Source: Nitrosomonas europaea (lineage in GTDB: Bacteria; Pseudomonadota; Gammaproteobacteria; Burkholderiales; Nitrosomonadaceae). Taken from it: a DNA stretch of 28,346 nt. The notes beneath the pieces are model-generated. The model was not told the DNA's origin and made no database searches. It was given only the letters and a program-made list of their open reading frames with translations. Position numbers and translations under genes: made by a program. The stretch lies in the NCBI RefSeq assembly GCF_900167395.1, contig NZ_FUWK01000008.1, forward strand, positions 43,942-72,287, given 5' to 3'. This document shows, one piece after another, positions 1 through 26,073 of the stretch; within the stretch, counting starts at the first letter, position 1, and each line of letters opens with the position of its first letter.

Positions 1-690
1 GACAACAGCACCAACACCAAAACTGTTGACAGCAACAACACCAGCACCAAAACTTCTGACAGCAGTGACAACAGTACCAACACCAAAACTGTTGCAAATA
101 CAGACAGCAACAACAGTGGTAAAGCATCTGCCGATGACAAGTCTGCTGCTGCTAATAACAATAGTACTGCCAGTGTAGACAATAGCAACAGCAGTACTAA
201 CAGCAAAGACAGCAACGATAACAACAGCCGTGCCAGTGCCAGCGCTAAAGGCGATGGCTCTGCTTCTGCCAACGGCGGTAGCACTGCTACTTCTGATAAC
301 AGCGATAACAGCGATAACAGCAGTGCCAGTGCCAAAGGTCAGGGTAATGCCTCGGCTAATGGTGGTGGTGCAGCAACCGTAACGGATAGCAGCGATAACA
401 GCAGCGCCAATGCACATGGTGGTAAAGGTAATGCTGTTGCAAATGGTGGTGGGGCTGCCACATCTACCTACGCTATCAATAATGCTGAGTTGAGCGGAAC
501 CGTAACCGGCCAGGCTGCTGAAGGAATTCCTTTGGTCGATGCCTCCGCTCTCGTTGGTGGTAATTTAAGCAATAATATTGACGGTTCACTGAATGGTGCC
601 GGCCTGAATCAGGTTGCTCAGAACATTGGGTCAAGCTCTTTGATTCAGCAGCAAGTATCTTTCCAGGGTAATGTGAACGTTAATCAGTAA
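1..690 (+). CDS. Secreted low-complexity repeat protein (5' partial); candidate fibre/cargo subunit of the downstream Fap-like cassette
   Basis: Frame +1 is open from base 1 to TAA at 688-690; the listed ORF 490..690 is only its tail. Composition is D/N/S/T/G/A-rich. A DNSTNTKTV unit at nt 1-27 recurs at nt 67-93 with one synonymous change. Three imperfect repeats SA[SN]A[KH]G.G.A.ANGG..AT lie at nt 235-291, 322-378 and 403-462. The Q/N-rich C-terminal motif is shared with the next ORF. Confidence 0.7.
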   Translation, partial: DNSTNTKTVDSNNTSTKTSDSSDNSTNTKTVANTDSNNSGKASADDKSAAANNNSTASVDNSNSSTNSKDSNDNNSRASASAKGDGSASANGGSTATSDNSDNSDNSSASAKGQGNASANGGGAATVTDSSDNSSANAHGGKGNAVANGGGAATSTYAINNAELSGTVTGQAAEGIPLVDASALVGGNLSNNIDGSLNGAGLNQVAQNIGSSSLIQQQVSFQGNVNVNQ

Positions 691-723
691 TAGCTTTATT
701 GGTTAATGTAATGTAGTACTTTC

Positions 724-762
724 AACTGGCAGGCAGTAGCAATATTGCTTGCCAGTTTTTTT
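724..762 (+). terminator. Rho-independent terminator or attenuator after the repeat-protein gene
   Basis: AACTGGCAGGCAGTA / GCAA loop / TATTGCTTGCCAGTT forms about 15 bp of stem (two G-U pairs) around a GNRA-type tetraloop. It is followed by a run of seven T (756-762) and sits 34 nt after the stop codon. Confidence 0.75.
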
Positions 763-805
763 ATCGGGATAGGAAAGATTACGTGAGTGACAAATGGAGA
801 TTTTT

Positions 806-1174
806 ATGAGAACCAGTATTAGAAAGGGTCTTGTTGCACTTGCGATATGGGTGCCTGTTGGTATGAGTTATGGAGCTTCCGGATCAGAATTGTTGGAGGG
901 AAAGGATATATATCTCCCTCATGCAGAGAGAGCAACTCTGGAAGAGCTGGATAATGCGACAGGCCGTGAAGGAGTGGATATAACCACACTAAATCGTATG
1001 AATGTCCGTGCATTTCTTGCCGATAATAGCGCAACCAATAATGTCAGCGGGTTTAATTCCATCGATAACGGTTCTTTTGTCGGAGCAAGCGGTATGTTTT
1101 CGGTAATTCAGAACTCAGGTAACAATGTTCTCATACAGGACTCGACAATAGTCAATGTGACCATATTACCTTGA
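806..1174 (+). CDS. Small secreted protein with Q/N-rich C-terminal motif paralogous to the upstream repeat protein
   Basis: ATG at 806 is preceded by GGAG at 796-799; the listed ORF starts at 794. The predicted signal peptide is MRTSIRKGLVALAIWVPVGMSYGA. The C-terminal NSIDNGSFVGASGMFSVIQNSGNNVLIQDSTIVNV aligns with NNIDGSLNGAGLNQVAQNIGSSSLIQQQVSF of the upstream ORF. Confidence 0.6.
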   Translation: MRTSIRKGLVALAIWVPVGMSYGASGSELLEGKDIYLPHAERATLEELDNATGREGVDITTLNRMNVRAFLADNSATNNVSGFNSIDNGSFVGASGMFSVIQNSGNNVLIQDSTIVNVTILP

Positions 1175-1297
1175 GTCTGGTATCAGTTTTTTGGATGGAG
1201 TGACGATAAAGAAATCATATTCAGGTCAATTTCTTCAGTTTGAGATTGGCTGCGTCGGTTATGCTAAGTGTTTTGGTTGTCTATCCAGAGATCAACT

Positions 1298-1993
1298 ATG
1301 AAGTTACCGCTGACATCATTTGCTGTTTTCCTGATCACTCAGACAGTCTGGGCTGGTGAGGTGTTTGCGCTGGATATGATTGGTGTGGCGGGTGGTGCCA
1401 ACTTCAATATACAAGGCAAGAGCTTTGCGGAACGCCGTTTTAGTACGGTTTACAGGCAGCAATTCGATTTCAGTTGTGGCTCGGCAGCTTTGGCAAGTTT
1501 GCTTACTTTTCACTATGACGATAGTGTGGATGAACAGTCTGTATTTGTTGATATGTTCCAGCATGGGGATCAGGAAAAGATCAGGCGAGAAGGTTTTTCC
1601 ATGCTGGATATGAAGCGGTATCTTGAACGAAGAGGGTATGGTTCAGATGGTTTCAAAATCAATTTAGATCAGTTGTATTCCACTGGCAGTCCCGCCATCA
1701 CTATCATTAATCATAATGGCTATATGCACTTTGTCATTATTAAAGGGGTGGATGAGGATAGAGTTCTGGTGGGGGATCCGGCTCAGGGCGTCAAATCCAT
1801 GGATCGCACTGAATTTGAAAGAATGTGGGGGAATCGCATTGTATTTCTGATTCATAATCATGTGGATCCTGAAGTAAGCTACCGGAAAATACATCAGGAG
1901 TGGTCGGGCAGGTTGGCCCCATTGGGAGAAGCAGTTGATCGGACGAGTCTGGGCGTTTTTAATGTACTGCGGCCAGGTCCTTGGGATTTTTGA
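1298..1993 (+). CDS. Periplasmic C39 peptidase-like protein (FapD-like)
   Basis: ATG at 1298 gives the signal peptide MKLPLTSFAVFLITQTVWAG. The motif QQFDFSCGSAALASLLTFHY is a C39 catalytic Cys context. DQEKIRREGFSMLDMKRYLERRGY and HFVIIKG..DRVLVGDPA carry the His/Asp region. It is a standalone domain with no ABC transporter fusion. Confidence 0.75.
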   Translation: MKLPLTSFAVFLITQTVWAGEVFALDMIGVAGGANFNIQGKSFAERRFSTVYRQQFDFSCGSAALASLLTFHYDDSVDEQSVFVDMFQHGDQEKIRREGFSMLDMKRYLERRGYGSDGFKINLDQLYSTGSPAITIINHNGYMHFVIIKGVDEDRVLVGDPAQGVKSMDRTEFERMWGNRIVFLIHNHVDPEVSYRKIHQEWSGRLAPLGEAVDRTSLGVFNVLRPGPWDF

Positions 1994-2018
1994 TGGTTTT
2001 TATGAGATGGGGCGAAAA

Positions 2019-2519
2019 ATGAAAACAGGACACTTTTATCTGATGGTAAAAAATATCCGATCCTGCCTTGTGCTAATGGTATTGTCCTGTTTTACGGTCC
2101 AAACATACGCCGAAGATGTAACTGTCAGGTTATCAGTACAAAATATTCATCACCCGGAGTGGGAACGCGCAACGGATGAAGAGCTCGCAGTATTGAGAGG
2201 GGGATTCGTTCTTCCAAATGGTGTACATATTGATATGAGTCTGGAAAAGTTTATCCACTTGAATGATGTGCTGGTGCATTCATCCTCTCTTCAGCTTCCG
2301 GGCGCAGGTGTGGTTTTACAAGCGGGTATGCAGAATATGGTGTCTGATTCTATCACCGTGCCGGAACTCAGTACCTTCGTTCAGAATACACTGGATAGTC
2401 AGCATATTGAGGCATTGACAACCATCAATATAGAAGTCAGCAATCTGAAAGGGATTGCAGCGAATGGCGGCGGTCAGCAGGTTTTTACCGAATTTTTAGC
2501 ACCAGCTTTGTTGCGGTAG
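2019..2519 (+). CDS. Small secreted hypothetical protein in the Fap-like cassette
   Basis: The ORF 1935..2519 overlaps the upstream gene. In-frame ATGs at 2007, 2019 and 2043 all precede the signal-peptide-like KNIRSCLVLMVLSCFTVQTYA-ED. The start choice is uncertain. No family was recognised. Confidence 0.5.
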   Translation: MKTGHFYLMVKNIRSCLVLMVLSCFTVQTYAEDVTVRLSVQNIHHPEWERATDEELAVLRGGFVLPNGVHIDMSLEKFIHLNDVLVHSSSLQLPGAGVVLQAGMQNMVSDSITVPELSTFVQNTLDSQHIEALTTINIEVSNLKGIAANGGGQQVFTEFLAPALLR

Positions 2520-2540
2520 CTATTCTGTACGCCATCAAGC

Positions 2541-3929
2541 ATGAGAAAAAATATATCTGAAAATAATGGTAAACGCCCCGGAAGTGTGAAAAGCAGATTT
2601 CTTGTGAGTGCTTTTGCAGTATTTCTTGTTGCTTATTCTCAGACAGGAAGATCTTCAGAAGAAGTCCTCGAACAATATAAATCCCTTTTTGCGCAGCAGC
2701 AAAAGGAGTTCGAAAAACAGCGGCAGATCATCATCGAGCAGGGGAAAGAAATAGAGAAGCTCAAATCCCGTCTGGACTCCCTGATTACTACGCAACCTAC
2801 CGATCGCAGCCCGGCCAGCAATGTAGCTGGCAAAGATGGGCAACGTCCCCCGCAGGTATCCTCACCCTCTACTCCAAAGACGGTAGTTGCCGGACCAGTT
2901 GGCAAAAAAAATGATCAGGTACAGACACGCACCGTGCCTGGTAATCTTCCTGCTGGGCCTGTAGGACAGGCGCCACCCAAGCAGGATGAGAAACCAAGAC
3001 CGCCTGAAATGCCTAGATTGAGTGATGCAGTAGGAGGAGTGCTGACACGTAAAGGCAAGATCGTGGTTGAACCTGCACTGGAATATGCTTTCACGGACAG
3101 TAACCGGATATTTCTGGATGCATTCACATTTCTCCCGGCGATTGCTATTGGTTTGATAGATGTTCGTCAAGTGGATCAGCACAGCCTTATGGCAAGTATT
3201 GGAGCTCGCTACGGTGTGACAGATCGTCTTGAGGTTGAAGCGAGAGTTCCCTATCGCGCGCGTTTTGATGAGCAACGCTCCAGGCCAGTCAGCATTGGAG
3301 CCGGGATCGATGAAACATTCAATGCATCCGGGAATGGCTTGGGGGACATTGAATTTGCCGCTCGCTATCAGCTTAATTCAGGAGCGGGAGGGTGGCCTAT
3401 TCTGGTGGGAAATATGCGAGCAACAGTACCTACAGGGAAGGGGCCCTTTGATATTAAATACGCACAGGCTCAAGGTGTTCCAGGTGCTGTATTTCCTACT
3501 GAAGTTCCTACAGGATCGGGTTTTTTCAGTTTTGAACCAAGCGTTACTGCACTCTATGCAACTGATCCGGCCGTATTCTTTGCAAATCTGGCCTATAACT
3601 ACAATATGGGTACCACGGAGAAGGCGCTTGATGGATCAGGTGATAAATTTAAGGTTGATCCAGGTTATGCAGTGGGTATGACTTTTGGTATGGGGTTCGG
3701 AATTAACGAGCGCTCTTCGTTCAATATCGGGTATGGTCATCGCCATATTTTTAATACCAAAATAAATAATCGTACATTGAAAGGTAGTCAGCTTGATATA
3801 GGGCAATTACTGCTCGGCTATGCTTTTAAATATTCACAGCAGACTACCTTGAATTTCTCCATTGCGATAGGAACAACCGATGATGCACAGGATGTCAGAC
3901 TCAGCTTTAGAGTGCCCATGACGTTTTAA
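2541..3929 (+). CDS. Outer-membrane beta-barrel with N-terminal coiled coil and Pro-rich linker (FapF-like / MetA-type transporter fold)
   Basis: It has a signal peptide and a heptad-like region EEVLEQYKSLFAQQQKEFEKQRQIIIEQGKEIEKLKSRLDSL. A P/Q/G-rich linker of about 80 aa follows, then alternating-hydrophobicity barrel strands with a GLGD motif. The C-terminus is the OMP signature ...RVPMTF. Confidence 0.7.
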   Translation: MRKNISENNGKRPGSVKSRFLVSAFAVFLVAYSQTGRSSEEVLEQYKSLFAQQQKEFEKQRQIIIEQGKEIEKLKSRLDSLITTQPTDRSPASNVAGKDGQRPPQVSSPSTPKTVVAGPVGKKNDQVQTRTVPGNLPAGPVGQAPPKQDEKPRPPEMPRLSDAVGGVLTRKGKIVVEPALEYAFTDSNRIFLDAFTFLPAIAIGLIDVRQVDQHSLMASIGARYGVTDRLEVEARVPYRARFDEQRSRPVSIGAGIDETFNASGNGLGDIEFAARYQLNSGAGGWPILVGNMRATVPTGKGPFDIKYAQAQGVPGAVFPTEVPTGSGFFSFEPSVTALYATDPAVFFANLAYNYNMGTTEKALDGSGDKFKVDPGYAVGMTFGMGFGINERSSFNIGYGHRHIFNTKINNRTLKGSQLDIGQLLLGYAFKYSQQTTLNFSIAIGTTDDAQDVRLSFRVPMTF

Positions 3930-4118
3930 TTCCATTTATAAATCAAAACTAAATTTGTCGGCTTCACCTTGCCGTATTATTTATACCGTCTGTGGCTCGC
4001 CTTCATGTCATTTTTGATTTGGGAATGGAATAAGTTGTTTTCCTTCTTTGCCTTGCCTTTGTTTTGTAGTATGACGAGAGTGTTGTAGCGGTTGGTAAAA
4101 AGAAGGCCGCCAAGTCGA

Positions 4119-4652
4119 TCATTGACAGCTATCCTTGTTTCCATCGCACCAGATTTTTCTGATTTTTTCTTCCATTCCGGCATTCATACCGGCAGCACGA
4201 CCTTCTTTGAAAGCGATTTCCGGGGCTATGCCTTCGCTCAGCCGGTAGGCAGTCCACATGGCACCAGCACGGTTACCGGTAGCACAATGGATCAGAACGG
4301 GGGGGGCTGCCTGCTCTAAAGCCTGTTTGAAGGCTGTTAGCTGTGACTCATTTACCCCTTCACCGGTGACAGGGATATTGATATAAGTTATGCCGACTGC
4401 TTCAACAGCTTTTTTCTCGCTTGGTGTCCCTTCTGATTCACTGCGCAGATCTATTACAGTCTGAAAACTGTGCTTGACGAGCTCCTGAATGCCATCTTTG
4501 GTAAGTGCTCCGGAAGTAGCAATATTGGGCGTGACGCGCAAATAACGCATCAGATCGTTAATCTGTGTAGCGTAGGGTACCTGATCTTTTGCAGATACCC
4601 AGCCTGATGACGATAAAGCGAGAATGATGATAAAAACTCTCACAAAAAACAT
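4119..4652 (-). CDS. Exported CX5R phosphatase-fold protein (DSP-PTPase-like / TIGR01244-type sulfur-transferase domain)
   Basis: The N-terminal signal peptide is MFFVRVFIIILALSSSGWVSA. The active-site-like motif HCATGNRAG matches HCxxGxR(S/T/A)G. Confidence 0.6.
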   Translation of the reverse strand: MFFVRVFIIILALSSSGWVSAKDQVPYATQINDLMRYLRVTPNIATSGALTKDGIQELVKHSFQTVIDLRSESEGTPSEKKAVEAVGITYINIPVTGEGVNESQLTAFKQALEQAAPPVLIHCATGNRAGAMWTAYRLSEGIAPEIAFKEGRAAGMNAGMEEKIRKIWCDGNKDSCQ

Positions 4653-4864
4653 TTTGACCTCCGATCATAATTGGAATGTGTAAAAATCGTAGCATGAATG
4701 CTCGGGTGGATAAAAGAGCAGATATGAGTTACGGCGAGGAATAACAATTTCTGGCCGATCCCGGCGTTTGATCACTCAAATCAGGGAAAGTCACGTTTGA
4801 TTGTGTTGGCAAGTATGGTGATTGACAACTGATTTGCCATTTTTTACTAAGGGTTGATGAACAG

Positions 4865-5956
4865 GTGTTCACCGCTTTGGATTATGAGTATATGTCCCAT
4901 GCGCTGCGGCTGGCCGAAAGGGGGCTGTTTACCACCAGCCCGAATCCTCGGGTAGGGTGCGTAATCGTCAATGGCGGCAAGGTAGTTGGAACAGGGTGGC
5001 ATGAGCGGGCAGGGGAGCCACATGCAGAAATTCATGCATTACGGAAAGCAGGGGATTTGGCCAAGGGCGCTACTGTTTATGTAACACTCGAGCCTTGCAG
5101 TCATCATGGCCGTACACCACCTTGCGTCGAGGCTTTGATTCAGGCAGGGGTGTGCAAAGTAGTCATGGCGATGAATGACCCTAATCCGCATGTAAACGGT
5201 CAAGGAAAGGAATGGTTGCAGAAAGCCGGTATCGCAATACAAGCAGGTTTGCTGGCTGATCAAGCAGAGCGATTGAATATCGGATTTGTTACCCGAATGC
5301 GACATGATCGTCCATGGGTGCGGACTAAGATAGCAGCCAGCTTCGATGGCAGAACGGCTCTGAAGAATGGAAAGAGCCAGTGGATTACCAGTGAGCCGGC
5401 TCGGCGGGATGGCCATAAATGGCGAGCACGTTCATGTGCGATACTGACAGGGATCAGCTCGGTCAGGAAGGATGACCCTCAACTGACGGTGCGGTATATT
5501 ACGGTCTCCAGGCAGCCAATGCGCATAGTGGTGGATTCGAACCTGGAAACTCCCTTGCAGGCAAAGTTGCTGCAGAATGCAGATACAACTTGGATCTTCA
5601 CGGCACAGACCAGCAAAGAAAAAATACACCGACTGGAAGATACCGGTGCTCACATCGTTGTTTTGCCTGATTTGGCCGGAAAGGTTGATCTCAAAGCCAT
5701 GATGGTGAAGTTGGCCGAATTAGGTATCAATGAGCTGCTGGTTGAAGCAGGCCCGGTACTGAACGGAGCGCTGGTAACAGCTGGGCTGGTGGATGAAATC
5801 ATTTTTTATTTTGCCCCCAGCCTGTTGGGTAATTCAGCACAAGCGATGCTGGCATTGCCTGAAATCGGGGATTTATCAGAGAAGTATGATTTGCAAATAT
5901 CCGATATTCGAAAAATCGGGATGGATGTCCGTCTGATAGCAAGGTTTATGAAATGA
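4865..5956 (+). CDS. ribD: Bifunctional riboflavin biosynthesis protein RibD (pyrimidine deaminase / uracil reductase)
   Basis: The start is GTG. Deaminase zinc motifs HAEIHAL and PCSHHGRTPPC are present. A C-terminal reductase domain is present, and the length of 363 aa is typical. Confidence 0.9.
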   Translation: MFTALDYEYMSHALRLAERGLFTTSPNPRVGCVIVNGGKVVGTGWHERAGEPHAEIHALRKAGDLAKGATVYVTLEPCSHHGRTPPCVEALIQAGVCKVVMAMNDPNPHVNGQGKEWLQKAGIAIQAGLLADQAERLNIGFVTRMRHDRPWVRTKIAASFDGRTALKNGKSQWITSEPARRDGHKWRARSCAILTGISSVRKDDPQLTVRYITVSRQPMRIVVDSNLETPLQAKLLQNADTTWIFTAQTSKEKIHRLEDTGAHIVVLPDLAGKVDLKAMMVKLAELGINELLVEAGPVLNGALVTAGLVDEIIFYFAPSLLGNSAQAMLALPEIGDLSEKYDLQISDIRKIGMDVRLIARFMK

Positions 5957-6047: not shown

Positions 6048-7253
6048 ATGCGAATTCTGCACATTCTGGATCACTCTATTCCGTTACACAGCGGTTATAC
6101 ATTTCGCACGTTGGCGATCCTGAAAGAACAGCGCGACCTGGGGTGGGAAACGTTTCATGTTACCAGCGCCAAACATACCGGCTCGGTTGCGCTGGAAGAA
6201 GAAGTCGATGGCTGGCATTTTTACAGGACGCCGGAGCATTCCCGTTTTGCCAGCAGACTGCCGATTCTGAATCAGATCGCTGTGATCAATGGTTTAGCTC
6301 GGCGGGTGGCTGATATCGTGCGAATCATCAAACCGGATCTTTTGCATGCCCATTCACCGGCACTCAATGCGATTCCCGCTCTGATCGCTGCGCGTAAAGC
6401 TTCTATACCGGTTATTTATGAGGTGCGCGCCTTCTGGGAAGATGCAGCAGTGGACCACGGCACCAGCAGTGAATGGGGTGTACGCTATCGTCTGACACGC
6501 GGGTTGGAAAATTTTGCACTTCGGCGTGTAGATGCAATCACTACGATTTGTGAAGGATTGCGAAATGACATGATCGGACGGGGTATTGCACCGGAAAAGA
6601 TTACGACTATTCCCAACGCGGTCGATATCGAGAAATTTGCTGCAAGCCGTCCGGCGAATGAATCACTCAAGGAGCAGTTTGGATTAAAGAGCAAGCGCAT
6701 CATCGGGTTTATCGGCTCTTTTTATGCTTACGAGGGGCTGGATATATTGCTACGGGCTTTGCCGATCATGCTGCTGCAGCATCCTGATTTGCGTGTATTG
6801 CTGGTCGGTGGCGGGCCACAGGATGGGCAGTTGCGGCAACTTGCCAGCCAGCTTGGTATCGGGGATAAAGTCATTTTTACCGGCCGTGTCCCACACGATA
6901 AAGTGCAGGATTACTATGATTTGATTGACGTTCTGGTTTATCCGCGCCTTTCCATGCGACTTACTGATCTCGTCACTCCTTTGAAGCCGCTGGAGGCTAT
7001 GGCACAGGGCAGAGTGCTGGCTGCTTCGGATGTGGGAGGACATCAGGAACTGATTCGTGACAACCATAACGGTATTTTGTTCAAATCCGGTGATCCGAAT
7101 TCACTGGCGCAAAAAGTCGGAGAGCTGATAAACGTGCCAGGCCGGTGGGAAGATTTGCGCAGGGCTGGACGGGAGTTTGTCGAGACTGAACGTAACTGGC
7201 GGAAAAGTGTGGCGAAATATCAGTTTATTTATAGTAATTTGCTCAATAAATAA
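6048..7253 (+). CDS. GT4-family glycosyltransferase (resembles the PEP-CTERM/exosortase-associated sugar transferase subfamily)
   Basis: The N-terminus MRILHILDHS.P..SGY matches the family. The C-terminal GT-B region has the E..G....EAMA.G.PV..S..GG..E-type motif (PLKPLEAMAQGRVLAASDVGGHQELI). The subfamily call is from memory only. Confidence 0.75.
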   Translation: MRILHILDHSIPLHSGYTFRTLAILKEQRDLGWETFHVTSAKHTGSVALEEEVDGWHFYRTPEHSRFASRLPILNQIAVINGLARRVADIVRIIKPDLLHAHSPALNAIPALIAARKASIPVIYEVRAFWEDAAVDHGTSSEWGVRYRLTRGLENFALRRVDAITTICEGLRNDMIGRGIAPEKITTIPNAVDIEKFAASRPANESLKEQFGLKSKRIIGFIGSFYAYEGLDILLRALPIMLLQHPDLRVLLVGGGPQDGQLRQLASQLGIGDKVIFTGRVPHDKVQDYYDLIDVLVYPRLSMRLTDLVTPLKPLEAMAQGRVLAASDVGGHQELIRDNHNGILFKSGDPNSLAQKVGELINVPGRWEDLRRAGREFVETERNWRKSVAKYQFIYSNLLNK

Positions 7254-7405
7254 ATGTAGACTAAATATTGGGGCTACAGATATCGCCTGAGCTTGAATTT
7301 TCTAATTAATTGCGTGTATTAACCACTTAAAACGTTTCGCTGCGTGTTGCCCAGGGCGGCTTTTTATGGTTCCTGACAAATCTAGGGCGTGGAAATTTTA
7401 ACAGT

Positions 7406-8674
7406 ATGAAACTAGCTCCCGAGGAGACTGAGAACAAAGACAAGAAAGATACTAATAATCCCGGGATTGTTGTATTTTCTTCACTTTTTCCGCACTCGGG
7501 TCAGCCTAATGCTGGTTTGTTCATTCGTGAACGTATGTTTCGGGTGGGAAAACATCTTCCGCTCGTGGTGGTGGCACCCGTACCCTGGTTTCCATTTCAG
7601 AAAATTCTTCGCAGATGGCGCCCTCATTTCAGACCGGATGCTCCTTATATGGAGCTTCAGGAAAATATTGAGGTTCTCCATCCACGTTTTTTTTCCATTC
7701 CGGGATTTTTTAAGTTTCTGGATGGTTTTTTCATGGCATTAGGCAGCTTGCCTGTTTTGTGGCGGCTCAAGCGACGTTTCGATTTTAAGATTATTGATGC
7801 GCATTTTGCCTATCCGGACGGTTACGCTGCGAGCCTTCTGGGGAGATGGTTCCGGGTTCCTGTCACGATTACCTTGCGAGGCACGGAGGTACGGCTTTCC
7901 CACAGATTTTTATATCGAGATCTTATGCGTTCAGCCATGATACGTGCTGCGAAGATTTTTTCAGTATCGGATTCTTTGAAACAGGTAGCAGTGGCAATCG
8001 GAATCCAGGAAAGCAAAATACTCGTGGTGGGTAATGGTGTGGATCTTGATAAGTTTTGTTGTATTGATCGGTCTGAAGCGCGTAAGAGCCTGGAAATACC
8101 GGAAGATATACCGATATTGATATCGGTGGGTGGGCTTTGTGAGCGCAAGGGGTTTCATCGTGTCATCGCGTGTCTGCCTGACTTGATAAGTACTTACCCT
8201 GGTATTCAATTTTTGATAATCGGTGGTGCAAGTGCCGAGGGTGACTGGACTGAGCGTTTGCAACAGCAGGTTTCTGAATCGGGGTTTGAGAAAAATGTTC
8301 GTTTTCTGGGTGTCATGCCACCAGATCAGTTGAAGATTCCGCTTTCTGCTGCTGATTTATTTGTGCTTGCTACAAGAAATGAGGGATGGGCTAATGTATT
8401 TCTCGAAGCAATGGCATGTGGTTTGCCGGTGGTGACTACTGACGTAGGCGGAAATGCTGAAGTAGTCTGTCGTTCGGAACTGGGTAAACTGGTTCCTTTT
8501 AATGATCAGCAGGCACTTTGCCAGGCAATTGCCAATGCACTGGAAGTAAATTGGGATCGAGAAAAAATAATCATGTACGCTCACGCAAACTCGTGGGATC
8601 AGAGAGTAGCTGTCCTTGTAGAAGAATTTGTGAAGATCACCTGCCAATCTGAGTTGGCGGAACAATATCGTTAA
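7406..8674 (+). CDS. GT4-family glycosyltransferase
   Basis: Motifs are VVFSSLFP....PNAGLFIRER at the N-terminus and NEGWANVFLEAMACGLPVVTTDVGGNAEVV (the GT4 EX7E-type region). Confidence 0.75.
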   Translation: MKLAPEETENKDKKDTNNPGIVVFSSLFPHSGQPNAGLFIRERMFRVGKHLPLVVVAPVPWFPFQKILRRWRPHFRPDAPYMELQENIEVLHPRFFSIPGFFKFLDGFFMALGSLPVLWRLKRRFDFKIIDAHFAYPDGYAASLLGRWFRVPVTITLRGTEVRLSHRFLYRDLMRSAMIRAAKIFSVSDSLKQVAVAIGIQESKILVVGNGVDLDKFCCIDRSEARKSLEIPEDIPILISVGGLCERKGFHRVIACLPDLISTYPGIQFLIIGGASAEGDWTERLQQQVSESGFEKNVRFLGVMPPDQLKIPLSAADLFVLATRNEGWANVFLEAMACGLPVVTTDVGGNAEVVCRSELGKLVPFNDQQALCQAIANALEVNWDREKIIMYAHANSWDQRVAVLVEEFVKITCQSELAEQYR

Positions 8675-8676
8675 CC

Positions 8677-10032
8677 ATGGCTGGTATTTATACACATTTG
8701 ATATCCGGATTCCTGTTCCCGCTTCATGAACACCTCAAGCGGCACGCCAGTGTCAATGTGCGTAAATCCATGGAGCAGACTCAATGGTTTTCTCCTGAAA
8801 AGATCGTGCAGTTACAGACTGAAAAACTGCGTCAGTTGCTCATTCATATAAACACACATGTTCCCTATTACCGCACGCTGTTTGCTGAGTTGGGTTTTCA
8901 ACCGGAGGAAGCTGGTTCACTGGCTGATTTGCAATACCTGCCTTTTCTCGATAAATCAATCATTCGTACACATCTGGAGGAACTCAAATCTGATCAGGCG
9001 CGAGGGCTCGTTCGTTTCAATACGGGAGGATCCAGTGGCGAACCGCTGGTTTTTTTTATCGGCAAGGAACGTGTCAGCCACGATATTGCCGCAAAGTGGC
9101 GAGCTACACGCTGGTGGGGCGTGGATATAGGTGATCCCGAAATCGTTGTCTGGGGTTCTCCGATCGAATTGGGTGCGCAGGATACGTTGCGTTCATGGCG
9201 GGATCATTTGTTTCGCAGCAGATTATTGCCCGCATTTGAAATGTCCGACCAGAAGCTCGATGATTTTCTTGATACGATCCGCAGGTTTCATCCCAAAATG
9301 CTGTTCGGTTATCCCTCGGCTTTGTCGCATATAGCGAAATATGCTGATAAATCAGGTATTAAGATGTCCAATTTGGGAATTCAGGTGGCTTTCGTCACTT
9401 CGGAACGGCTGTATGATGATCAGCGCAGACAAATCAGTGACACTTTCGGCTGTCCGGTTGCAAATGGTTATGGGGGGCGTGATGCCGGGTTCATTGCTCA
9501 TGAATGTCCTGCAGGCGGAATGCATATCACCGCTGAGGATATCATCGTTGAAATTGTCGATTCTAACGGCCATCCCCTTCCATACGGAGAATCAGGCGAA
9601 ATTGTGGTGACTCATCTGGCAAGCAGAGATTTCCCTTTCATTCGTTATCGTACCGGGGATATTGGTATTCTGGATGACAGAACATGTGATTGCGGGCGGG
9701 GATTACCGCTGCTTCGGGAGATACAGGGCCGCAGCACCGATTTTGTCGTTGCGCAGAATGGTACAGTCATGCACGGGCTGGCACTGATTTATATTTTGCG
9801 AGACATGCCGGAAGTAAAAGTTTTCAAAATCATCCAGGAGAGCCTGGATTTCACCCGAGTTCAGGTCGTTGCAGAGACCGGCTTGCATCCGTCGCAGATC
9901 AGCCGGATCACCGAATCGTTTCAAACCAGACTGGGTCGGGATGTAAAGATCAAGGTGGAACAGGTATCTGAAATTCCGGCTGAGAAATCAGGCAAGTTTC
10001 GTTATGTGGTCAGTAAAGTGGCCGGGGTTTGA
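8677..10032 (+). CDS. Phenylacetate-CoA ligase / coenzyme F390 synthetase-like adenylate-forming enzyme (CapK-like)
   Basis: The P-loop-like motif TGGSSGEP, together with YGGRDAG and YRTGD, matches the PaaK/F390 family. The gene starts 3 nt after the upstream glycosyltransferase stop. Confidence 0.7.
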   Translation: MAGIYTHLISGFLFPLHEHLKRHASVNVRKSMEQTQWFSPEKIVQLQTEKLRQLLIHINTHVPYYRTLFAELGFQPEEAGSLADLQYLPFLDKSIIRTHLEELKSDQARGLVRFNTGGSSGEPLVFFIGKERVSHDIAAKWRATRWWGVDIGDPEIVVWGSPIELGAQDTLRSWRDHLFRSRLLPAFEMSDQKLDDFLDTIRRFHPKMLFGYPSALSHIAKYADKSGIKMSNLGIQVAFVTSERLYDDQRRQISDTFGCPVANGYGGRDAGFIAHECPAGGMHITAEDIIVEIVDSNGHPLPYGESGEIVVTHLASRDFPFIRYRTGDIGILDDRTCDCGRGLPLLREIQGRSTDFVVAQNGTVMHGLALIYILRDMPEVKVFKIIQESLDFTRVQVVAETGLHPSQISRITESFQTRLGRDVKIKVEQVSEIPAEKSGKFRYVVSKVAGV

Positions 10033-10033
10033 A

Positions 10034-10654
10034 TTAATCAGTCGATTGCACAAAAGGTATAGGTACTCCCATCCATAACAGTGCAACTACTATCAGCGCG
10101 ATTCCCACACCGGTAGTTCCCACGATCATCCCAGCAATGATGGTCAGACCATCCTTGCTGAGTAACCCCAATGACATGATGAGGATTCCCAGGCCGGGAA
10201 GAAAATTGATCAGGGGGACCGGCAGTGCAATGGAAATCGAGAAAATGAATGAAAAGAGGCCGATGATACGTTCCCAGGCATGTACACTGATGTAAGTCAG
10301 CCGCGGATGCATGTGGCTTTCAATTTTGCGTAACCATGGTGCTGCCTTGGTGATTAATTTGTCCAGTGTTCCCCTTTTTATGGTTTTTTTTGTCAACCAT
10401 TCTGGAATCCACGGCGCTTTCATGCCACATATCATTTGGATCGAGAAAATAAACAGCGGAATGGCAAAAACAGTAGTGTACCCAGGTGGTGCGGGAACAG
10501 GCAGACAGATCGGTAAAGTAGCAATGGCGAGCAGCACGGCAAAGCCACGCTCGTGCAATGAGTTTTTGATTTCGTCCACACTGATCACTGCATTGGTGTT
10601 TTGTACGACGATCAGTTGCAATAGTTCGGATGTATTTTTTTCCTTGTTCTCCAC
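10034..10654 (-). CDS. exoD: Exopolysaccharide synthesis protein ExoD family (membrane)
   Basis: ERGFAVLLAIATLPICLPVPAPPGYTTVFAIPL is the typical ExoD N-terminal signature. Several TM segments are present. Its stop lies 1 nt from the convergent upstream gene stop. Confidence 0.7.
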   Translation of the reverse strand: MENKEKNTSELLQLIVVQNTNAVISVDEIKNSLHERGFAVLLAIATLPICLPVPAPPGYTTVFAIPLFIFSIQMICGMKAPWIPEWLTKKTIKRGTLDKLITKAAPWLRKIESHMHPRLTYISVHAWERIIGLFSFIFSISIALPVPLINFLPGLGILIMSLGLLSKDGLTIIAGMIVGTTGVGIALIVVALLWMGVPIPFVQSTD

Positions 10655-13542: not shown

Positions 13543-14619
13543 ATGAAAATCATTGAAAGGTACATCACACGGGAACTGCTGTTTCCTTTCATCGTGGTGA
13601 CGGTCATCCTGATCGGGCTTTTCGTCAGTTTCAGTGTTGCACGGTTTTTGACCAGTGCCGTGACTGAAACGCTTGGTACTGCCGCCATGTTCAAGCTGGT
13701 CGGATTGAAAACCATCATTGCGCTGGAAGTGCTGGTTCCCATTGCGTTCTATGTGGCGGTCATCTATGGTTTGAGCCGGATGAACCGGGATCAGGAAATC
13801 AATGTACTGCGCACCGCCGGATACGGGGATAACCGGATCATCCGTACCGTTTTCGTGATTGCTCTGCCGATTGCCATTCTCAGCGGGATTCTTTCCGTTT
13901 ATGCCCGTCCGTGGGCTTATGCGGAAAGCTATATCATGGATGCGCAGGCTGAAGCTGAATTGAATACCAACCGGTTCCAGCCTGGAAGGTTTTATGGCAG
14001 TGAAAAAAGCGGTCGAGTGATTTTTATCCGGGGTAAAGATGATCTGGAAAAACGTATGGAAGGCGTTTTCCACTACATCAGAACGACTGAAGATAGAGAA
14101 ATCATTATTTCCAGGGAAGGTTATCAGCAGCCGATGACTGCAGAACAGTGGCCGCATATCGAACTGCGGGAAGGCCAGATCTATCGTCTCAGCTTTGATA
14201 CTGTCAAAGACAGCGCCATTCGTTTTGAGAAGATGATCTATTTCAATGAAAACGATCAGGCTCAGAACTATCGGCGCAAGGCGGCATCTACTCGTTCCTT
14301 ATGGGATTCTGAAGAACCGCGTGAAATTGCAGAGTTGCAGTGGCGGCTTTCACGGCCTGTCGCAACTGTTCTGCTTGCGCTGATCGCCGTTTCTTTTACC
14401 CGCACCGCACCACGCAAAGATAAAACAGACAGAACCTTTCTTGTCGCTGCACTGGTCTTTGCTGTTTATTACAATCTCAGCGGATTAGCCAAGACTTGGG
14501 TGGAGCAGGGCGTGGTAGCCGCCATGCCCGGAGTCTGGTGGGTATATGGATTGCTTATCATAATCGTTATGCTGCGCCTTCCCGAGCTCAGATCTTTATT
14601 GCCTGCAGGAAAACAGTGA
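13543..14619 (+). CDS. lptF: LPS export ABC transporter permease LptF
   Basis: MKIIERYITRELLFPF is the canonical LptF/LptG (YjgP/YjgQ) N-terminus. The topology is TM, periplasmic domain, TM. It pairs with the next gene. Confidence 0.85.
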   Translation: MKIIERYITRELLFPFIVVTVILIGLFVSFSVARFLTSAVTETLGTAAMFKLVGLKTIIALEVLVPIAFYVAVIYGLSRMNRDQEINVLRTAGYGDNRIIRTVFVIALPIAILSGILSVYARPWAYAESYIMDAQAEAELNTNRFQPGRFYGSEKSGRVIFIRGKDDLEKRMEGVFHYIRTTEDREIIISREGYQQPMTAEQWPHIELREGQIYRLSFDTVKDSAIRFEKMIYFNENDQAQNYRRKAASTRSLWDSEEPREIAELQWRLSRPVATVLLALIAVSFTRTAPRKDKTDRTFLVAALVFAVYYNLSGLAKTWVEQGVVAAMPGVWWVYGLLIIIVMLRLPELRSLLPAGKQ

Positions 14620-15683
14620 AGATCTGTCATCGTTATATCGCCTGGCAGGTTTTGACGGGAATGGTTATCGCTACTGCCATCCTGTTACCTCTGTTCAGTT
14701 TTTTTGATTTGCTGGATCAGCTTGATGACGTAGGGAAGGGGACATATACCACCTGGGATGCTTTTCTGTATACCGTCATGCTGATGCCCCGCAGATTCAT
14801 CCAGATTGCACCGTTCATCGCACTGCTGGGGACGGTGGGTGCGCTGGGTGCGCTGGCAGTCAATCTGGAACTGGTGGCGATGCGGGTGGCAGGGCTTTCT
14901 CCCTTGATGATCGGCCTTGCTCCGGTTGGAATTGGAGGATTACTCATTGCCTCGACGATAGCACTGGAGTATTTTGTGGCTCCTCAGTTTCAGCAGCAGG
15001 CAACGATATTGCGGGCAGTTGCACTGGAACAGGGGGCTGAACTGGGTAAGGGGCTCGGTATCTGGACACGAAACGAGCGGAATATATTGCGTATTGGTGA
15101 GATGTTGCATAAAGGGCGTGCTACGGATATCGAAGTCATCCATTTTGATGGAGAGGGATCCATGACCGCTCATGTCCATGCATGGTATGCAGATATTTTT
15201 GATGAGAGTTTATGGAAGCTGCATGACGTCACGATACGTACATTCTCCCCGGATCGCATCACTTCCAGGAAGGCACACATCCTTCAGTGGCATTCGTTTC
15301 TGGGCCCGGACGATATTGCGACACTGACCAAGTCGCCGGAAAGTCTGACGCCAATAGAGCTGGTGAAACATGCTGAATTTTTGAGGGCGACCGGCCAGAA
15401 AGCGGATGCCTACGTTATGGCGTTGTGGCGCAAGGTTGGCGGGGCGATCATGACAATTGCGATGATCCTGGTCGCCATTCCCTTTATCTTCGGCTCTGTA
15501 CGTGAAGGATTGGGGGGTAAACTGATTCTGGCTGCGCTCATGGGGATCAGTATTTACCTGTTTGATCAGATCATTGCCAATATCGGACTGGTATTCCAAT
15601 TGAACCCGATTGTCGTTTCGGTTGTACCCGGAATGGTTCTGATTGCTGTCGCAGCACATTGGCTGTTACGGCGCACTTTTTGA
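14616..15683 (+). CDS. lptG: LPS export ABC transporter permease LptG
   Basis: A GTG start at 14616 overlaps the lptF stop (GTGA). VKICHRYIAWQVLTGMVIATAILLPLFSFFDLLDQL is typical of LptG. The listed ORF start at 14496 would overlap lptF by 124 nt. Confidence 0.85.
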   Translation: MKICHRYIAWQVLTGMVIATAILLPLFSFFDLLDQLDDVGKGTYTTWDAFLYTVMLMPRRFIQIAPFIALLGTVGALGALAVNLELVAMRVAGLSPLMIGLAPVGIGGLLIASTIALEYFVAPQFQQQATILRAVALEQGAELGKGLGIWTRNERNILRIGEMLHKGRATDIEVIHFDGEGSMTAHVHAWYADIFDESLWKLHDVTIRTFSPDRITSRKAHILQWHSFLGPDDIATLTKSPESLTPIELVKHAEFLRATGQKADAYVMALWRKVGGAIMTIAMILVAIPFIFGSVREGLGGKLILAALMGISIYLFDQIIANIGLVFQLNPIVVSVVPGMVLIAVAAHWLLRRTF

Positions 15684-15684
15684 G

Positions 15685-16920
15685 ATGAATATGACTACTG
15701 CTTTCTTCGTTCACATTATCGGCAACAGTAAAACCAGTCTGTGGGGGATGGATGGGCGTACGCGCCTCGAGCGGATGCTGGGAACGATCAAGACGGTTGC
15801 AGTGGTGAAAGAGGTATCACAATTGACCGAAACGGATCCCGTGTTGCTGCTGCGTGCTGACTATCTGTTCGATAGCAGAGTGATCAGTGCGCTGATGGCA
15901 TTGCATGAACCGGCCGTACTCGTGGCTCCTATGGATGAGACTCCGGTTGCGATTCTGATTGACGGGAAAAATGCCGCTGCGATGTGTGAAGTACTGAACG
16001 AAAAAAGACCGGCACCTGACGATCTTCCCGTTCGTACCTTGAAAGACCTCCCGATTCAGGTACAGCAGAATCTGAAGAAGAAGGATCCGCCCTATGTATT
16101 GCCGATCCGGCGTTGTAACCAGGCCGAGCTTGAATCAGAGCTGTTTGCCGCATCCTATAAGGGTGTAACCGATCTGGTCACCAAATGGCTATGGCCCTGG
16201 CCGGCGTTTATGGTAACGCGCCTGTGTGTTCGACTGGGTCTGAAGCCCAATCATGTGACGCTGCTCAGTCTGGTTCTGGCGGTGCTGGCAGGCGTGGCAT
16301 TCTGGTATGGCGCGTTTGGTATCGGCCTGATCATGGCGTGGCTGATGACTTTTCTGGATACGGTCGATGGCAAGCTGGCGCGTGTCACGCTGACATCAAG
16401 CAAGCTGGGCGATGTGCTGGATCACGGTCTGGATATCATTCATCCGCCGTTGTGGTATCTGGCCTGGGGGGTGGGCCTCATGGCCACCGCCACACCTGTA
16501 GCGGATCTCGAATTGCTGGTCTGGCTGATGTTCATTGGCTATGTGGGGGGCCGTCTTTGTGAAGGCGCTTTCCAGTTCTGGCTGGCATCTTTTGATATTT
16601 TCATCTGGCGTAAAGTCGATTCGTTCCATCGTTTGATTACCGCACGGCGCAATCCGAATCTGATCCTGCTGACTGCCGGCTGGATGGCAGATCGGCCGGA
16701 TATCGGATTTATCTTGGTTGTATTGTGGCATCTGCTTTCAACTCTGTTTCTCGCTTACAGATTGTTCGCTGCCTGGCAAAGCCGGTCACAGGATGGTGTG
16801 CTTCATTCCTGGATGGAGAACATCGATCCCGTTCGGGACAGGCAGCAGCTTGCCGTCAGAATATTTACCCGGTTACCTTTTCCCCAACGGTATGTCAATC
16901 CCGCCGCAGATAACGAGTAA
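15685..16920 (+). CDS. CDP-alcohol phosphatidyltransferase family protein with an N-terminal extra domain of about 170 aa
   Basis: ATG at 15685 lies 1 nt after the lptG stop. The signature DTVDGKLARVTLTSSKLGDVLDHGLD matches D.(2)DG.(2)AR.(8)G.(3)D.(3)D. Multiple TM helices follow. The soluble N-terminal domain resembles a degenerate nucleotidyltransferase fold. Confidence 0.8.
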   Translation: MNMTTAFFVHIIGNSKTSLWGMDGRTRLERMLGTIKTVAVVKEVSQLTETDPVLLLRADYLFDSRVISALMALHEPAVLVAPMDETPVAILIDGKNAAAMCEVLNEKRPAPDDLPVRTLKDLPIQVQQNLKKKDPPYVLPIRRCNQAELESELFAASYKGVTDLVTKWLWPWPAFMVTRLCVRLGLKPNHVTLLSLVLAVLAGVAFWYGAFGIGLIMAWLMTFLDTVDGKLARVTLTSSKLGDVLDHGLDIIHPPLWYLAWGVGLMATATPVADLELLVWLMFIGYVGGRLCEGAFQFWLASFDIFIWRKVDSFHRLITARRNPNLILLTAGWMADRPDIGFILVVLWHLLSTLFLAYRLFAAWQSRSQDGVLHSWMENIDPVRDRQQLAVRIFTRLPFPQRYVNPAADNE

Positions 16921-17893
16921 CCCGGCGGTGGATCTGATCCCTGCCAGGATTGGCCTGATTTACAACCCGCTGGGAGGCTGGTTTCGCAAGCATACTGCGC
17001 GGATGCAGAGTCTTCTGGCAACATTACCGGAAATTAGACAGATTCAGGCAACCGATCAGATCGAGTTTGAACGTGCTGTCACTGTCGTAGTTGAAGCGAA
17101 GATCGGGTGGCTGATCGTTGTGGGGGGAGATGGCACTCTGCAAGGGGTAATGAGTTGTCTGTTTGAGTGCCTGCCACCGGACAGGTGGCCGGAAATCACC
17201 ATCGTGCCCGCTGGAACGACCAACATGACCGCACTGGATCTGGGAATGAATGGGCAAGCCGAGCAGATTTTGTCCAGAATCAGGCAACATCTGCAACGAC
17301 CCGGTGACATGAAACAGGTACGAAGACCAGTGCTGCGTATCGAGCAGACCGGTATGAGGAATGTGTATGGAATGATGCTCGGTCTCGGCCTGATTGCGCG
17401 TGGCGTAAAATTTTCACGCAGTCAGATCAAGCAATTGGGAATGACCGGTAACATTTTTACTGTCGTGATCGTATTGCGTTCGCTAATAGGCATGTTTCTG
17501 GGGCGTCCGCAAGCCGAATGGGCTCCGGTACGTGTTGCCCAAATAGATGAAACAGGGGTGTTGAGCGAGAAAGTGTATCTGTTCGCACTCATCAGTGCGC
17601 TGGAGAAGCTATTGCTCGGCATTCGCCCCTATTGGGGGCAGGAACCGGCACCGCTGCATGCGACATTTATCGGGCAACACAGTCGGCGGTTCTGGCGCGC
17701 TATCTGGCCCCTGATCGCAGGGCGTGGTCACCATTTGCAGAAGGAAGACGGCTATACCAGCTATAACACGGCTTCGATCGAGCTGTGGCTGGATGATGAA
17801 TATATCGTGGATGGTGAGCTCTACTATGCTTCCAGCCGGAATGGTCCGCTGAAAATTACAGCCGATGGCCCGATTCTGTTCCGCATTTTATGA
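16892..17893 (+). CDS. Diacylglycerol-kinase catalytic-domain (DAGK_cat / YegS-like) lipid kinase
   Basis: IGLIYNPLGG ... LIVVGGDGTLQGV ... IVPAGTTNMTA match the DAGK_cat motifs. The start is uncertain: ATG 16892 overlaps the upstream gene by 29 nt, and GTG 16928 is an alternative. Confidence 0.7.
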   Translation: MSIPPQITSNPAVDLIPARIGLIYNPLGGWFRKHTARMQSLLATLPEIRQIQATDQIEFERAVTVVVEAKIGWLIVVGGDGTLQGVMSCLFECLPPDRWPEITIVPAGTTNMTALDLGMNGQAEQILSRIRQHLQRPGDMKQVRRPVLRIEQTGMRNVYGMMLGLGLIARGVKFSRSQIKQLGMTGNIFTVVIVLRSLIGMFLGRPQAEWAPVRVAQIDETGVLSEKVYLFALISALEKLLLGIRPYWGQEPAPLHATFIGQHSRRFWRAIWPLIAGRGHHLQKEDGYTSYNTASIELWLDDEYIVDGELYYASSRNGPLKITADGPILFRIL

Positions 17894-17907
17894 AAAAAGG
17901 AATATGA

Positions 17908-18873: not shown

Positions 18874-18925
18874 GCGGATGCAATATCCGGGTATTTGCCG
18901 GGAAATTCATTGGGGAGTGACGATC

Positions 18926-19573
18926 ATGAAGTATTCAATCCGGTTCTTTGCCGTAATTTTTGCGATTTTCCTAACGGCCTGTTCCACCATGTATTACAGT
19001 GGACTCGAAAAAATCGGTATCCCGAAGCGGGATGTGCTGGTTTATCGGGTGGAGAAAGCAAGAGATACGCAGGAAGAAACCCGAGAGCAATTCAAATCTG
19101 CTCTGGAGCAGTTTTCTGCTGCTACCAATTTCAAAGGAGGGGATCTTGAGGGGATTTATAAAAAACTGAACGGTGAGTATGAGGCGAGTGTGAACAAAGC
19201 AAAGGAAGTCAGAAGTCGTATCGAGGATATCGAAAACGTCTCAGCTGCATTATTCAGAGAGTGGGAGCAGGAAATCACGCAATATTCAAATCCGGCATTG
19301 AAACGGAGCAGTCAGGACAGGCTGACTGAGACCAGGTCGTATTACAAGCAGCTCATTGCGGCCATGAAAAACGCAGAATCGAGGATACAGCCCGTATTGA
19401 CCGTTTTCAACGATCAGGTCATGTACCTCAAGCATAATCTCAATGCCCGGGCAATCGCCTCATTGAAAGGTGAATTGAAAACATTGCAATCGAATGTTTC
19501 GACTCTGGTTGCTGCAATGGAAAAATCCATCAACGAAGCTAATACATTTATCAGCAATATGGAGAAAAACTAG
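18926..19573 (+). CDS. DUF2959-family lipoprotein
   Basis: ATG at 18926 with GGGGAG upstream. The lipobox is FLTAC. YYSGLEKIGIPKRDVLVYRVEKARDTQEE..EQFKSALEQF matches the DUF2959 N-terminal pattern. The remainder is coiled-coil-rich. Confidence 0.65.
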   Translation: MKYSIRFFAVIFAIFLTACSTMYYSGLEKIGIPKRDVLVYRVEKARDTQEETREQFKSALEQFSAATNFKGGDLEGIYKKLNGEYEASVNKAKEVRSRIEDIENVSAALFREWEQEITQYSNPALKRSSQDRLTETRSYYKQLIAAMKNAESRIQPVLTVFNDQVMYLKHNLNARAIASLKGELKTLQSNVSTLVAAMEKSINEANTFISNMEKN

Positions 19574-19590
19574 GCAGTAACTGCTTATGG

Positions 19591-23293: not shown

Positions 23294-23469
23294 TTTGTGT
23301 AAGCTTGGCAATCAATCTATCTCAGTGGACACAGACTGTGCTAGAATGGCCCCCCTTATAGGATTACCACTTTGAGAACTAACGTGCTCAGGTATTGATT
23401 TTGTTTTTGGTTTGTTAATTAAGTGCGTTGCTGGTTGACGGGAAATTAATGAAATGGAATTGTTAGAAA

Positions 23470-24075: not shown

Positions 24076-24076
24076 A

Positions 24077-26025: not shown

Positions 26026-26073
26026 GCTCCTCAAAGTCAGTTTCTGTGTAACCAGTTTCGTCTGACAGAAGCT

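Follow-up and report, generated by a model that had tools for sequence, protein, structure and literature searches.

The first 3,929 nucleotides of a 28,346-nucleotide stretch of Nitrosomonas europaea DNA (contig NZ_FUWK01000008.1, positions 43,942 to 72,287; hereafter the window, meaning the whole stretch analysed) hold a five-gene secretion cassette in which a known machinery, related to that of the Fap operon, is combined with a cargo family that had not been recognised. The segment 1-3929 is 100% identical to N. europaea ATCC 19718 (AL954747.1); with g1 at full length, the cassette covers about 856,140-860,776 of that record. Its genes, here called g1 to g5, all lie on the plus strand, and position 1 falls inside g1. 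A preliminary description, made from the letters of the window alone, had reported five co-directional genes for exported proteins; all are present at the coordinates it gave, and direct sequence inspection finds an N-terminal Sec-type n-h-c segment in every product.

Public annotation of the cassette genes is uninformative or wrong. Their names are 'hypothetical protein', 'C39 family peptidase' or 'transporter', together with two apparent annotation errors: 'acetate kinase', given in some sources to the barrel of Cupriavidus metallidurans CH34, and 'carbon storage regulator', the UniRef name of the N. eutropha g2 orthologue. No publication on the cassette in Nitrosomonas, Methylobacter or Cupriavidus came up in a literature search, and the Acinetobacter Fil system, with which we compare it below, yielded next to nothing.

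Peptidase and outer-membrane barrel

The third gene, g3 (1298..1993, with an alternative GTG start at 1268), encodes a standalone, FapD-like periplasmic C39 cysteine peptidase. The peptidase character read earlier from its sequence is upheld by a match above the gathering score to Pfam Peptidase_C39 (PF03412; E 1e-18, 67.9 bits against a cut-off of 22), and the protein has no ABC-transporter part. It is matched by the NCBIfam FapD model at E 4e-40 (137 bits, below the cut-off of 330) and by FilB, the peptidase of the Acinetobacter filABCDEF locus, at E 2e-36 (126 bits, below the cut-off of 475). Every protein of the reference Aeromonas fap operon also scores under the NCBIfam Fap equivalog cut-offs, Aeromonas FapD reaching 249 bits. 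The catalytic residues Gln64, Cys70, His154 and Asp170 (codons 1457-1459, 1475-1477, 1727-1729 and 1775-1777) are at least 97% conserved across 75 sequences that include Aeromonas FapD and FilB; thus, g3 is expected to be an active enzyme.

The last gene, g5 (2541..3929), encodes a FapF-like outer-membrane transporter of 462 amino acids, and the build claimed for it, with signal peptide, coiled coil, proline-rich linker and barrel, holds. A hydrophobic N-terminal signal peptide (2541-2651) is followed by a coiled-coil helix at residues 39-82 (2655-2786) and by a linker at residues 84-154 (2790-3002) that is 21% proline and disordered in the AlphaFold2 model. Beyond it lie a plug region (3009-3056), whose invariant GGVLT[RK]KG reads GGVLTRKG in the window, and a modelled beta-barrel at residues 174-457 (3060-3926) with a PTG motif at 3429-3449. 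GG motifs at the same pre-barrel junction of FapF have been discussed as a possible FapD site (PMC5557850).

The NCBIfam FapF model matches g5 at E 1e-39 (136 bits, below the cut-off of 700, under which Aeromonas FapF also falls with 371 bits), and FilC matches at E 1e-17 (64 bits, below the cut-off of 630). Together with the FapD match of g3, this bears out the FapD/FapF-like end proposed for the locus. In a phmmer search against the PDB, residues 157-461 align over the whole FapF crystal construct (5o65/5o67/5o68; E 5e-26), including the PTG motif, and the 18 best PDB matches in a Foldseek search with the model are all FapF chains (E 4.5e-15 to 1.6e-12, target template-modelling score 0.67-0.76). 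We conclude that g5 is a clear FapF homologue. In a neighbour-joining tree the cassette barrels make up their own clade, which excludes Aeromonas FapF, FilC and the second barrel of one related locus (L042, described below).

A MetA-type barrel had been raised as a reading that would undo this assignment: g5 would then admit hydrophobic compounds as an uptake channel of the MetA/COG4313 type, with unrelated neighbours. Some orthologues do carry a precomputed PF13557 label, a Neptunomonas orthologue is named 'MetA-pathway of phenol degradation' in one source, and the COG4313/MetA-type channel 4rl8 is the next Foldseek match after FapF. However, that match (E 6e-9) is about a million-fold worse than the best FapF chain (E 4.5e-15), and because FapF chains lie ahead of 4rl8 the objection fails. 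Additionally, g5 of the window has no PF13557 match at E<=0.1 and has a FapF-type coiled coil and linker, while synteny with C39 and substrate genes spans classes and phyla, the pairing of C39 peptidase and barrel being kept in 65 of 80 species loci. A MetA-type channel is thus very improbable.

Cargo, paralogues and a leader-like motif

The major cargo gene, g1 (1..690, frame 1), has only its 3' 229 codons inside the window; the full-length product in AL954747.1 has 465 amino acids. It runs from a signal peptide, MDQFSKKILAASIVLAFGFAGNVWA, through tandem low-complexity repeats rich in S, N, T, D and K to a conserved tail, and tandem DNA repeats are found in the gene. An alignment of 64 cargo tails defines a conserved C-terminal module, YAINNAELSGTVTG ... 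NLSNNIDGSLNGAGLNQVAQNIGSSSLIQQQVSFQGNVNVNQ (469..687), of which a Q/N-rich unit (562-687) is part. Across 63 orthologues the median length is 382 amino acids (161-739), with a D/N/S/T fraction of 0.67 and an isoelectric point of 4.1. Most lineages have one unit per cargo protein, placed after a hypervariable, acidic and nearly non-hydrophobic region; this region is Gly-rich in Cupriavidus, and the cargo of C. metallidurans CH34 is Gly/Asn-rich instead of D/N/S/T-rich. The cargo had been called atypical and unlike FapC, correctly so, as no FapB/FapC model or other family is matched. It constitutes an undescribed protein family and is the main novelty of the cassette. Within g1, the opposite strand and the remaining frames contain several open reading frames of 50-66 amino acids (26-382 and 476-634); these are by-products of the repeat DNA, not genes.

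The second gene, g2 (794 or 806..1174), encodes a small secreted protein of 126 amino acids, or 122 from the ATG at 806, that is 100% identical to an N. europaea entry named 'hypothetical protein'. It carries a leader-like motif, ERATLEELDNATGREG (926-973), and a Q/N-rich unit (1037-1171), and its family profile matches 1285 clusters (50% identity) at E<=1e-3 and 890 at E<=1e-10. The C-terminal motif said to be common to g1 and g2 is real, as a profile of the g1 tail matches g2 orthologues at E 1e-12 to 1e-19. Iterated profile searches among the open reading frames of 84 related loci find the g1 tail, g2 and g4 matching one another, and the family alignments of g2 and g4 match with an hhalign probability of 97.5% (E 8e-12). 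Judged by their sequences, g1, g2 and g4 are one paralogous family. The earlier view of g2 as an 'extra' small gene has to be given up, since g2 is paralogous to g4 and to the cargo tail and occupies the position of a second subunit gene (fapB or fapC) in fap operons.

The unit common to the three proteins follows the pattern N.ID..SF.GA.G...V.QN.G.N.L.Q, with a Q/N-rich core VxQNxGxNxLxQ in the cargo. Its consensus is N.I..SFNGAAGINQ.VQN.G.NAL.QQQVSFQGNVNVN in g1 and N.ID.GSF..ASG..SVIQNSGNNVIIQDSTIVNVTI in g2, and it is degenerate in g4 (SVIQN.LDNQ.I...T.INI). Tandem arrays occur elsewhere: 9 units, counted with a hidden Markov model (HMM), in a 688-amino-acid cargo protein of an alphaproteobacterial metagenome-assembled genome (MAG; L069:10831-12897, minus strand), and 17 in a 1500-amino-acid metagenome protein (P0510). 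These units (R.N.I..SF.G..GV.TVQQNNG.ANV.G) recur with periods of 60-85 amino acids, and the proteins have little low-complexity sequence. Because such arrays of 9 and 17 copies exist, we suggest that the unit behaves as a stacking repeat, by analogy with the repeat logic of curli and FapC. Modelled alone by AlphaFold2 from a 46-sequence alignment, g2 is disordered save for short hairpins (mean predicted local distance difference test, pLDDT, 46.6); the model would be compatible with folding on assembly and is no evidence for it.

The fourth gene, g4 (2019..2519), encodes a FapE-like secreted protein of 166 amino acids with a motif TDEELAVLRGGF at 2172-2207 and the degenerate Q/N unit around 2370-2450. 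Across 71 family members R59, G61, F62 and N122 are invariant and G60 is at least 90% conserved. The motif consensus is asD.EL..LRGGF.LPNG, with a putative cut position (EL..LRGG↓F). In its spacing (S-11, E-8, L-7, L-4, G-2, G-1) it corresponds to double-glycine leaders, on which C39 peptidases classically act. A leader-like motif is common to g2 and g4, about 30 residues past the signal peptide. 'ALVGG', ahead of the g1 tail unit, was considered as a further double-glycine cleavage site and dropped because only the N. europaea/eutropha lineage has it and the other cargo orthologues do not.

Several comparisons place g4 near FapE. NCBIfam FapE matches g4 itself weakly (E 0.04), exactly on the leader-like motif, and matches 21 of the 71 family members with a best E of 1.2e-5. 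The g4 family aligns with Aeromonas FapE at an hhalign P of 3.5e-4, the motif and Q/N unit being colinear and the similarity mostly N-terminal. An HMM of the g4 motif finds Aeromonas FapE (LADGELAHLRG) and g2 of the window, beating all 500 shuffles of each. The gene in the FapE position had been described as much shorter than expected, and so it is (166 amino acids against about 215-250), yet its product is probably a short relative of FapE nonetheless, given the 21 of 71 matches and the P value. In Pseudomonas, FapE alone among the Fap proteins loses about 70 N-terminal residues, and the FapD C38A variant blocks secretion (PMC5557850), while the substrate of FapD is still undetermined (PMC6173800, PMC5557850).

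A C39 peptidase beside double-glycine motifs could also belong to the maturation of bacteriocins or signal peptides, with g3 cutting the leaders of g2 and g4 to release bioactive peptides. Such processing is the classic C39 role, and g4 has canonical leader spacing. However, the cassette has neither an ABC transporter nor an immunity gene, all its products have Sec signal peptides and the peptidase is periplasmic. Moreover, g2 and g4 are strongly conserved among distant taxa, unlike bacteriocins, and are paralogous to a 465-amino-acid low-complexity protein. Peptide maturation is hardly credible as the purpose of this locus. The resemblance to peptidase-containing ABC transporters extends to the C39 fold, the catalytic residues and the leader-like spacing of the g4 motif; the differences are that g3 is a free periplasmic protein, that its substrates have Sec signal peptides and that an outer-membrane barrel serves as the exit.

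The Acinetobacter filABCDEF locus, annotated as a 'putative pilus', offers a further alternative, in which the cassette would be functionally nearer to a Fil-like, non-amyloid pilus system. There too a standalone C39 peptidase (FilB) adjoins a FapF-superfamily barrel (FilC), the two proteins matched by g3 and g5. By eye, FilA of A. baumannii (L086:4641-5480) has a similar motif past its signal peptide, ALSAATGQ↓DGINI, its MDDAALSAATGQDGINI resembling LEELDNATGREGVDI of g2. Against this, the scores lie far under the Fil cut-offs (126 against 475 bits and 64 against 630 bits), the five products match no Fil model other than FilB and FilC at E<=0.1, and FilC is only 26% identical (E 6e-21) and sits in the neighbour-joining tree outside the clade of the window, beside Aeromonas FapF. 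FilA is undetected by the g4 leader-motif HMM, the fil locus holds a second, large barrel-like gene plus genes for FilE and FilF, and Fil function is itself uncharacterised. We consider a Fil-type pilus improbable.

Distribution, gene order and surroundings

A locus scan with one genome per species returned 80 loci. All five families are present in 56 of them and g2, g3, g4 and g5 together in 65. One or two g1 genes, then g2, g3 and g4, form a fixed order, with the barrel gene downstream, upstream or divergent. The hosts include Nitrosomonas, Methylobacter, Methylomonas, Methylomicrobium, Neptunomonas, Paraglaciecola and Salinimonas, as well as Chromatiaceae, Rhodocyclaceae, Pandoraea, Motiliproteus and Cupriavidus, and the cassette is also found in MAGs labelled Alphaproteobacteria, Cytophagales and Flavobacteriales. 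In C. metallidurans CH34 it lies on the megaplasmid record NC_007974.2 (L087:2378-7996). Co-localised fapD/fapF homologues in five further phyla were reported by Rouse et al. 2018, and our literature search found nothing further on them.

Expression signals recur at these loci. A terminator-like hairpin with a T tract lies between g1 and g2 (724..764, plus strand; 15-bp stem, dG -22.7) and is a candidate intra-operon attenuator. Of 64 related loci, 30 have such a hairpin and T-rich tail behind the last cargo gene, with stem sequences specific to the lineage; this placement after a cargo gene is typical of major-subunit genes expressed in excess. Seven species loci (L014, L033, L041, L053, L055, L067 and L075) have two tandem cargo genes with differing low-complexity regions. 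At such loci the hairpin, where found, follows the second copy; at L053 it follows both, and at L014 only the first, more distant copy.

Regulators are the only neighbour families conserved across lineages, other clusters being confined to single lineages: an OmpR-type regulator lies beside the cassette at 22 loci and a VpsR-like sigma-54 activator at 10. Eight Nitrosomonas loci have a divergent 89-amino-acid gene upstream of the cargo (for example L088:3649-3918 and L005:4283-4552, both on the minus strand) with no Pfam match, whose product looks like a small helix-turn-helix regulator. In N. europaea and N. eutropha the region upstream of g1 holds this divergent gene of 89-90 amino acids, an aminotransferase gene and uvrB.

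One locus holds a second system. In an uncultured gammaproteobacterial MAG, L042:1617-5156, directly upstream of the cassette copy, contains a second, divergent C39 peptidase (3101-3889) and a coiled-coil barrel (3897-5156), preceded by genes for three small signal-peptide proteins (1617-2066, 2237-2515 and 2537-2914). Each of the three has L[ST]DxQMDxVSAG, with perfect double-glycine-leader spacing and AG at -2/-1. The g4-motif HMM scores them weakly (7, 48 and 500 of 500 shuffles score equal or better), leaving two of the three undetected, as it does FilA. This second cassette looks like a fourth cargo class for FapD/FapF-type pairs.

Downstream of the cassette, the window holds polysaccharide genes at 6048-10654, whose products are two glycosyltransferases, one matching TIGR04063 of the PEP-CTERM/XrtA system (648 bits) and a second of type GT4, together with a CapK-like AMP-dependent ligase and ExoD. 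Between them and the cassette lie ribD and, on the minus strand, a sulfur-transferase-like gene (4119-4652); with these genes intervening, a tie between the cassette and the PEP-CTERM/XrtA-type glycosyltransferase genes was considered and is not established. Positions 13543-27197 are housekeeping, with lptF, lptG, secA, cytochrome bc1 (Rieske protein, cytochrome b), sspA and tRNA-Thr(TGT) at 27122-27197.

Relation to Fap and the nature of the product

Like Fap of Pseudomonas and Aeromonas, the cassette has a C39 peptidase of the periplasm whose catalytic set is intact, and a FapF-homologous barrel with N-terminal coiled coil, disordered linker, junction GG and PTG motif. Between the genes for these two it encodes a probable FapE relative, with an EL..LRG[GR] motif found in both systems. 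Two subunit-type genes lie upstream of the peptidase gene, the order being subunit-subunit-fapD-fapE-fapF as in a true Aeromonas fap operon, and the Q/N-rich strand-turn-strand units have the minimal Fap repeat glycine spacing, G-x4-x-x3-G. In contrast, the longer of the two subunit genes precedes the shorter, FapA is lacking, and g4 falls short of the usual length of FapE. Scores lie far under the NCBIfam Fap cut-offs, g5 is about 26% identical to Aeromonas FapF and in a separate clade, and the cargo is not detectably FapB or FapC, having one unit, not three, behind an acidic D/N/S/T region of 150-650 amino acids. With g2 a subunit paralogue and g4 probably a FapE relative, the layout mirrors that of fapBCDEF with the subunit genes swapped and no fapA.

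The divergent, uncharacterised branch of Fap-type secretion that had been proposed thus finds support in FapD/FapF homology, an unmatched cargo and conserved synteny. It is highly probable that the cassette is a FapD/E/F-homologous export system for its own co-encoded substrates. We also favour, with appreciably less assurance, the fuller reading that the N. europaea cassette belongs to a widespread, unnamed system that is sister to the Pseudomonas Fap operon and whose product follows an amyloid-like fibre scheme.

In that scheme the products of g1 to g5 would reach the periplasm through Sec, in keeping with the signal sequences read directly in all five. The barrel g5 would be a FapF-type, plug-gated trimer with a periplasmic coiled coil, trimer and gating being taken over from FapF. 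As an active FapD-like periplasmic peptidase, consistent with its catalytic conservation, g3 would most probably cut or dock g4, and possibly also g2, at S..EL..LRGG↓F, and might also act on the GG at the barrel junction; this step would permit secretion, a role that has been suggested for FapD towards FapE. The substrates g1, g2 and g4, each with one Q/N-rich strand-turn-strand unit, would leave unfolded through g5, and their units would stack between subunits outside the cell into a cross-beta-like fibre. There g1 would be the abundant subunit, g2 a FapB-like minor or nucleating subunit and g4 an anchor or initiator akin to FapE. The disordered part of g1, acidic and rich in D, N, S and T, would coat the fibre.

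The same logic is familiar from curli (CsgA/CsgB with CsgG/E/F), where a major and a minor subunit have common Q/N/G-rich strand-turn-strand repeats, export across the outer membrane is unfolded and nucleation is extracellular, as in the scheme proposed for the cassette. The two systems have no sequence relationship; curli uses a CsgG nonamer, not a FapF-type barrel, and has no peptidase.

The relation of the unit to Fap repeats was pursued and is kept as a resemblance, not as membership, the signals being weak. By eye, IDGSFKGASGNIGANIAAGDSNVQGN of Aeromonas FapC resembles IDNGSFVGASGMFSVIQNSGNNVLIQ of g2, with identical G-x4-x-x3-G spacing, and the FapB model matches 2 of 68 g2-family members, at E>=0.026. 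PF27129 is the Pfam family precomputed for FapB; a FapB database search gave only Aeromonas sequences and hence no diverse Fap profile, and a tblastn search with Aeromonas FapF as query turned up no other true fap operon among the plasmids of the collection used.

A number of observations weigh against the reading as a sister system with a fibre product. According to the literature, the PDB contains structures of FapC and curli fibrils, and g1, g2 and their multi-unit relatives match no PDB chain even at E<=10, nor any Pfam or NCBIfam family, FapB and FapC models included (E<=0.1-1). The unit HMM scores 9.9 bits on the last Aeromonas FapB repeat against 7.1 for the best shuffle, and comparisons of the unit with Aeromonas FapB/FapC give hhalign P values of 0.002-0.01. 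As these statistics are only suggestive, we have assigned the cargo to neither FapB nor FapC. Amyloids do not typically contain a disordered region this acidic and rich in Asp. The residue ahead of the putative g2 cleavage site is Arg, not Gly, and outside the N. europaea/eutropha lineage the leader motif is absent from g1. The AlphaFold2 model of g5 has low overall confidence (pLDDT 58), with values of 70-86 across most of the barrel. No FapA-like gene lies beside the cassette, either in the upstream regions of N. europaea and N. eutropha or by clustering of neighbour families; FapA is missing from some true fap operons too (PMC6173800). Finally, members of the system are known from sequence alone, and every database name is 'hypothetical' or spurious.

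We place an amyloid-like fibre as the product a little short of an even balance. Its chief competitor keeps the same machinery and gives it a non-fibre product: g1, an acidic matrix protein either soluble or tethered to the surface, would form a hydrated, cation-binding coat, and the Q/N unit would be a secretion or docking tag for the barrel or for surface-bound g2 and g4. A cargo that is about 67% D/N/S/T, with an isoelectric point near 4.1 and very few hydrophobic residues, suits such a coat, as do the single unit per protein in most lineages, the undetectable similarity to FapC or curlin, and a low-complexity part that is hypervariable and lineage-dependent in composition (Gly-rich in Cupriavidus). 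However, repeated tags would hardly account for proteins in which 9-17 units stand in tandem with little low-complexity sequence, and the unit is conserved far above expectation for a simple export tag. We hold a non-fibre product to be unlikely, and clearly less so than the pilus, channel or peptide readings.

A broader generalisation can be offered tentatively, as a conjecture that is less likely than not. The FapD/FapF pair may be the core of a general, unnumbered type of outer-membrane secretion whose cargo classes include Fap, Fil, the Q/N-unit family and at least one more (L042). A periplasmic leader of the double-glycine type (S/T-x-x-E/Q-L/M-x-x-hydrophobic-x-G/A-G), read by the free C39 peptidase, would mark its substrates or initiator subunits. 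On this view a functional amyloid of a new class, with single Q/N units on hypervariable, acidic disordered domains, would be exported by the cassette and form a major fibre in the biofilm matrix of nitrifiers and methanotrophs.

Ammonia oxidisers and methanotrophs inhabit flocs, granules and biofilms, and to our knowledge the protein scaffolds of their matrices are largely unknown. The cassette is a concrete candidate for a matrix protein of these organisms, and it is found in two model strains, N. europaea ATCC 19718 and C. metallidurans CH34. The conserved g4 motif, recurring in Aeromonas FapE, supplies a precise candidate site that bears on what FapD cleaves. More generally, FapF-type secretion extends beyond FapC-like cargo.

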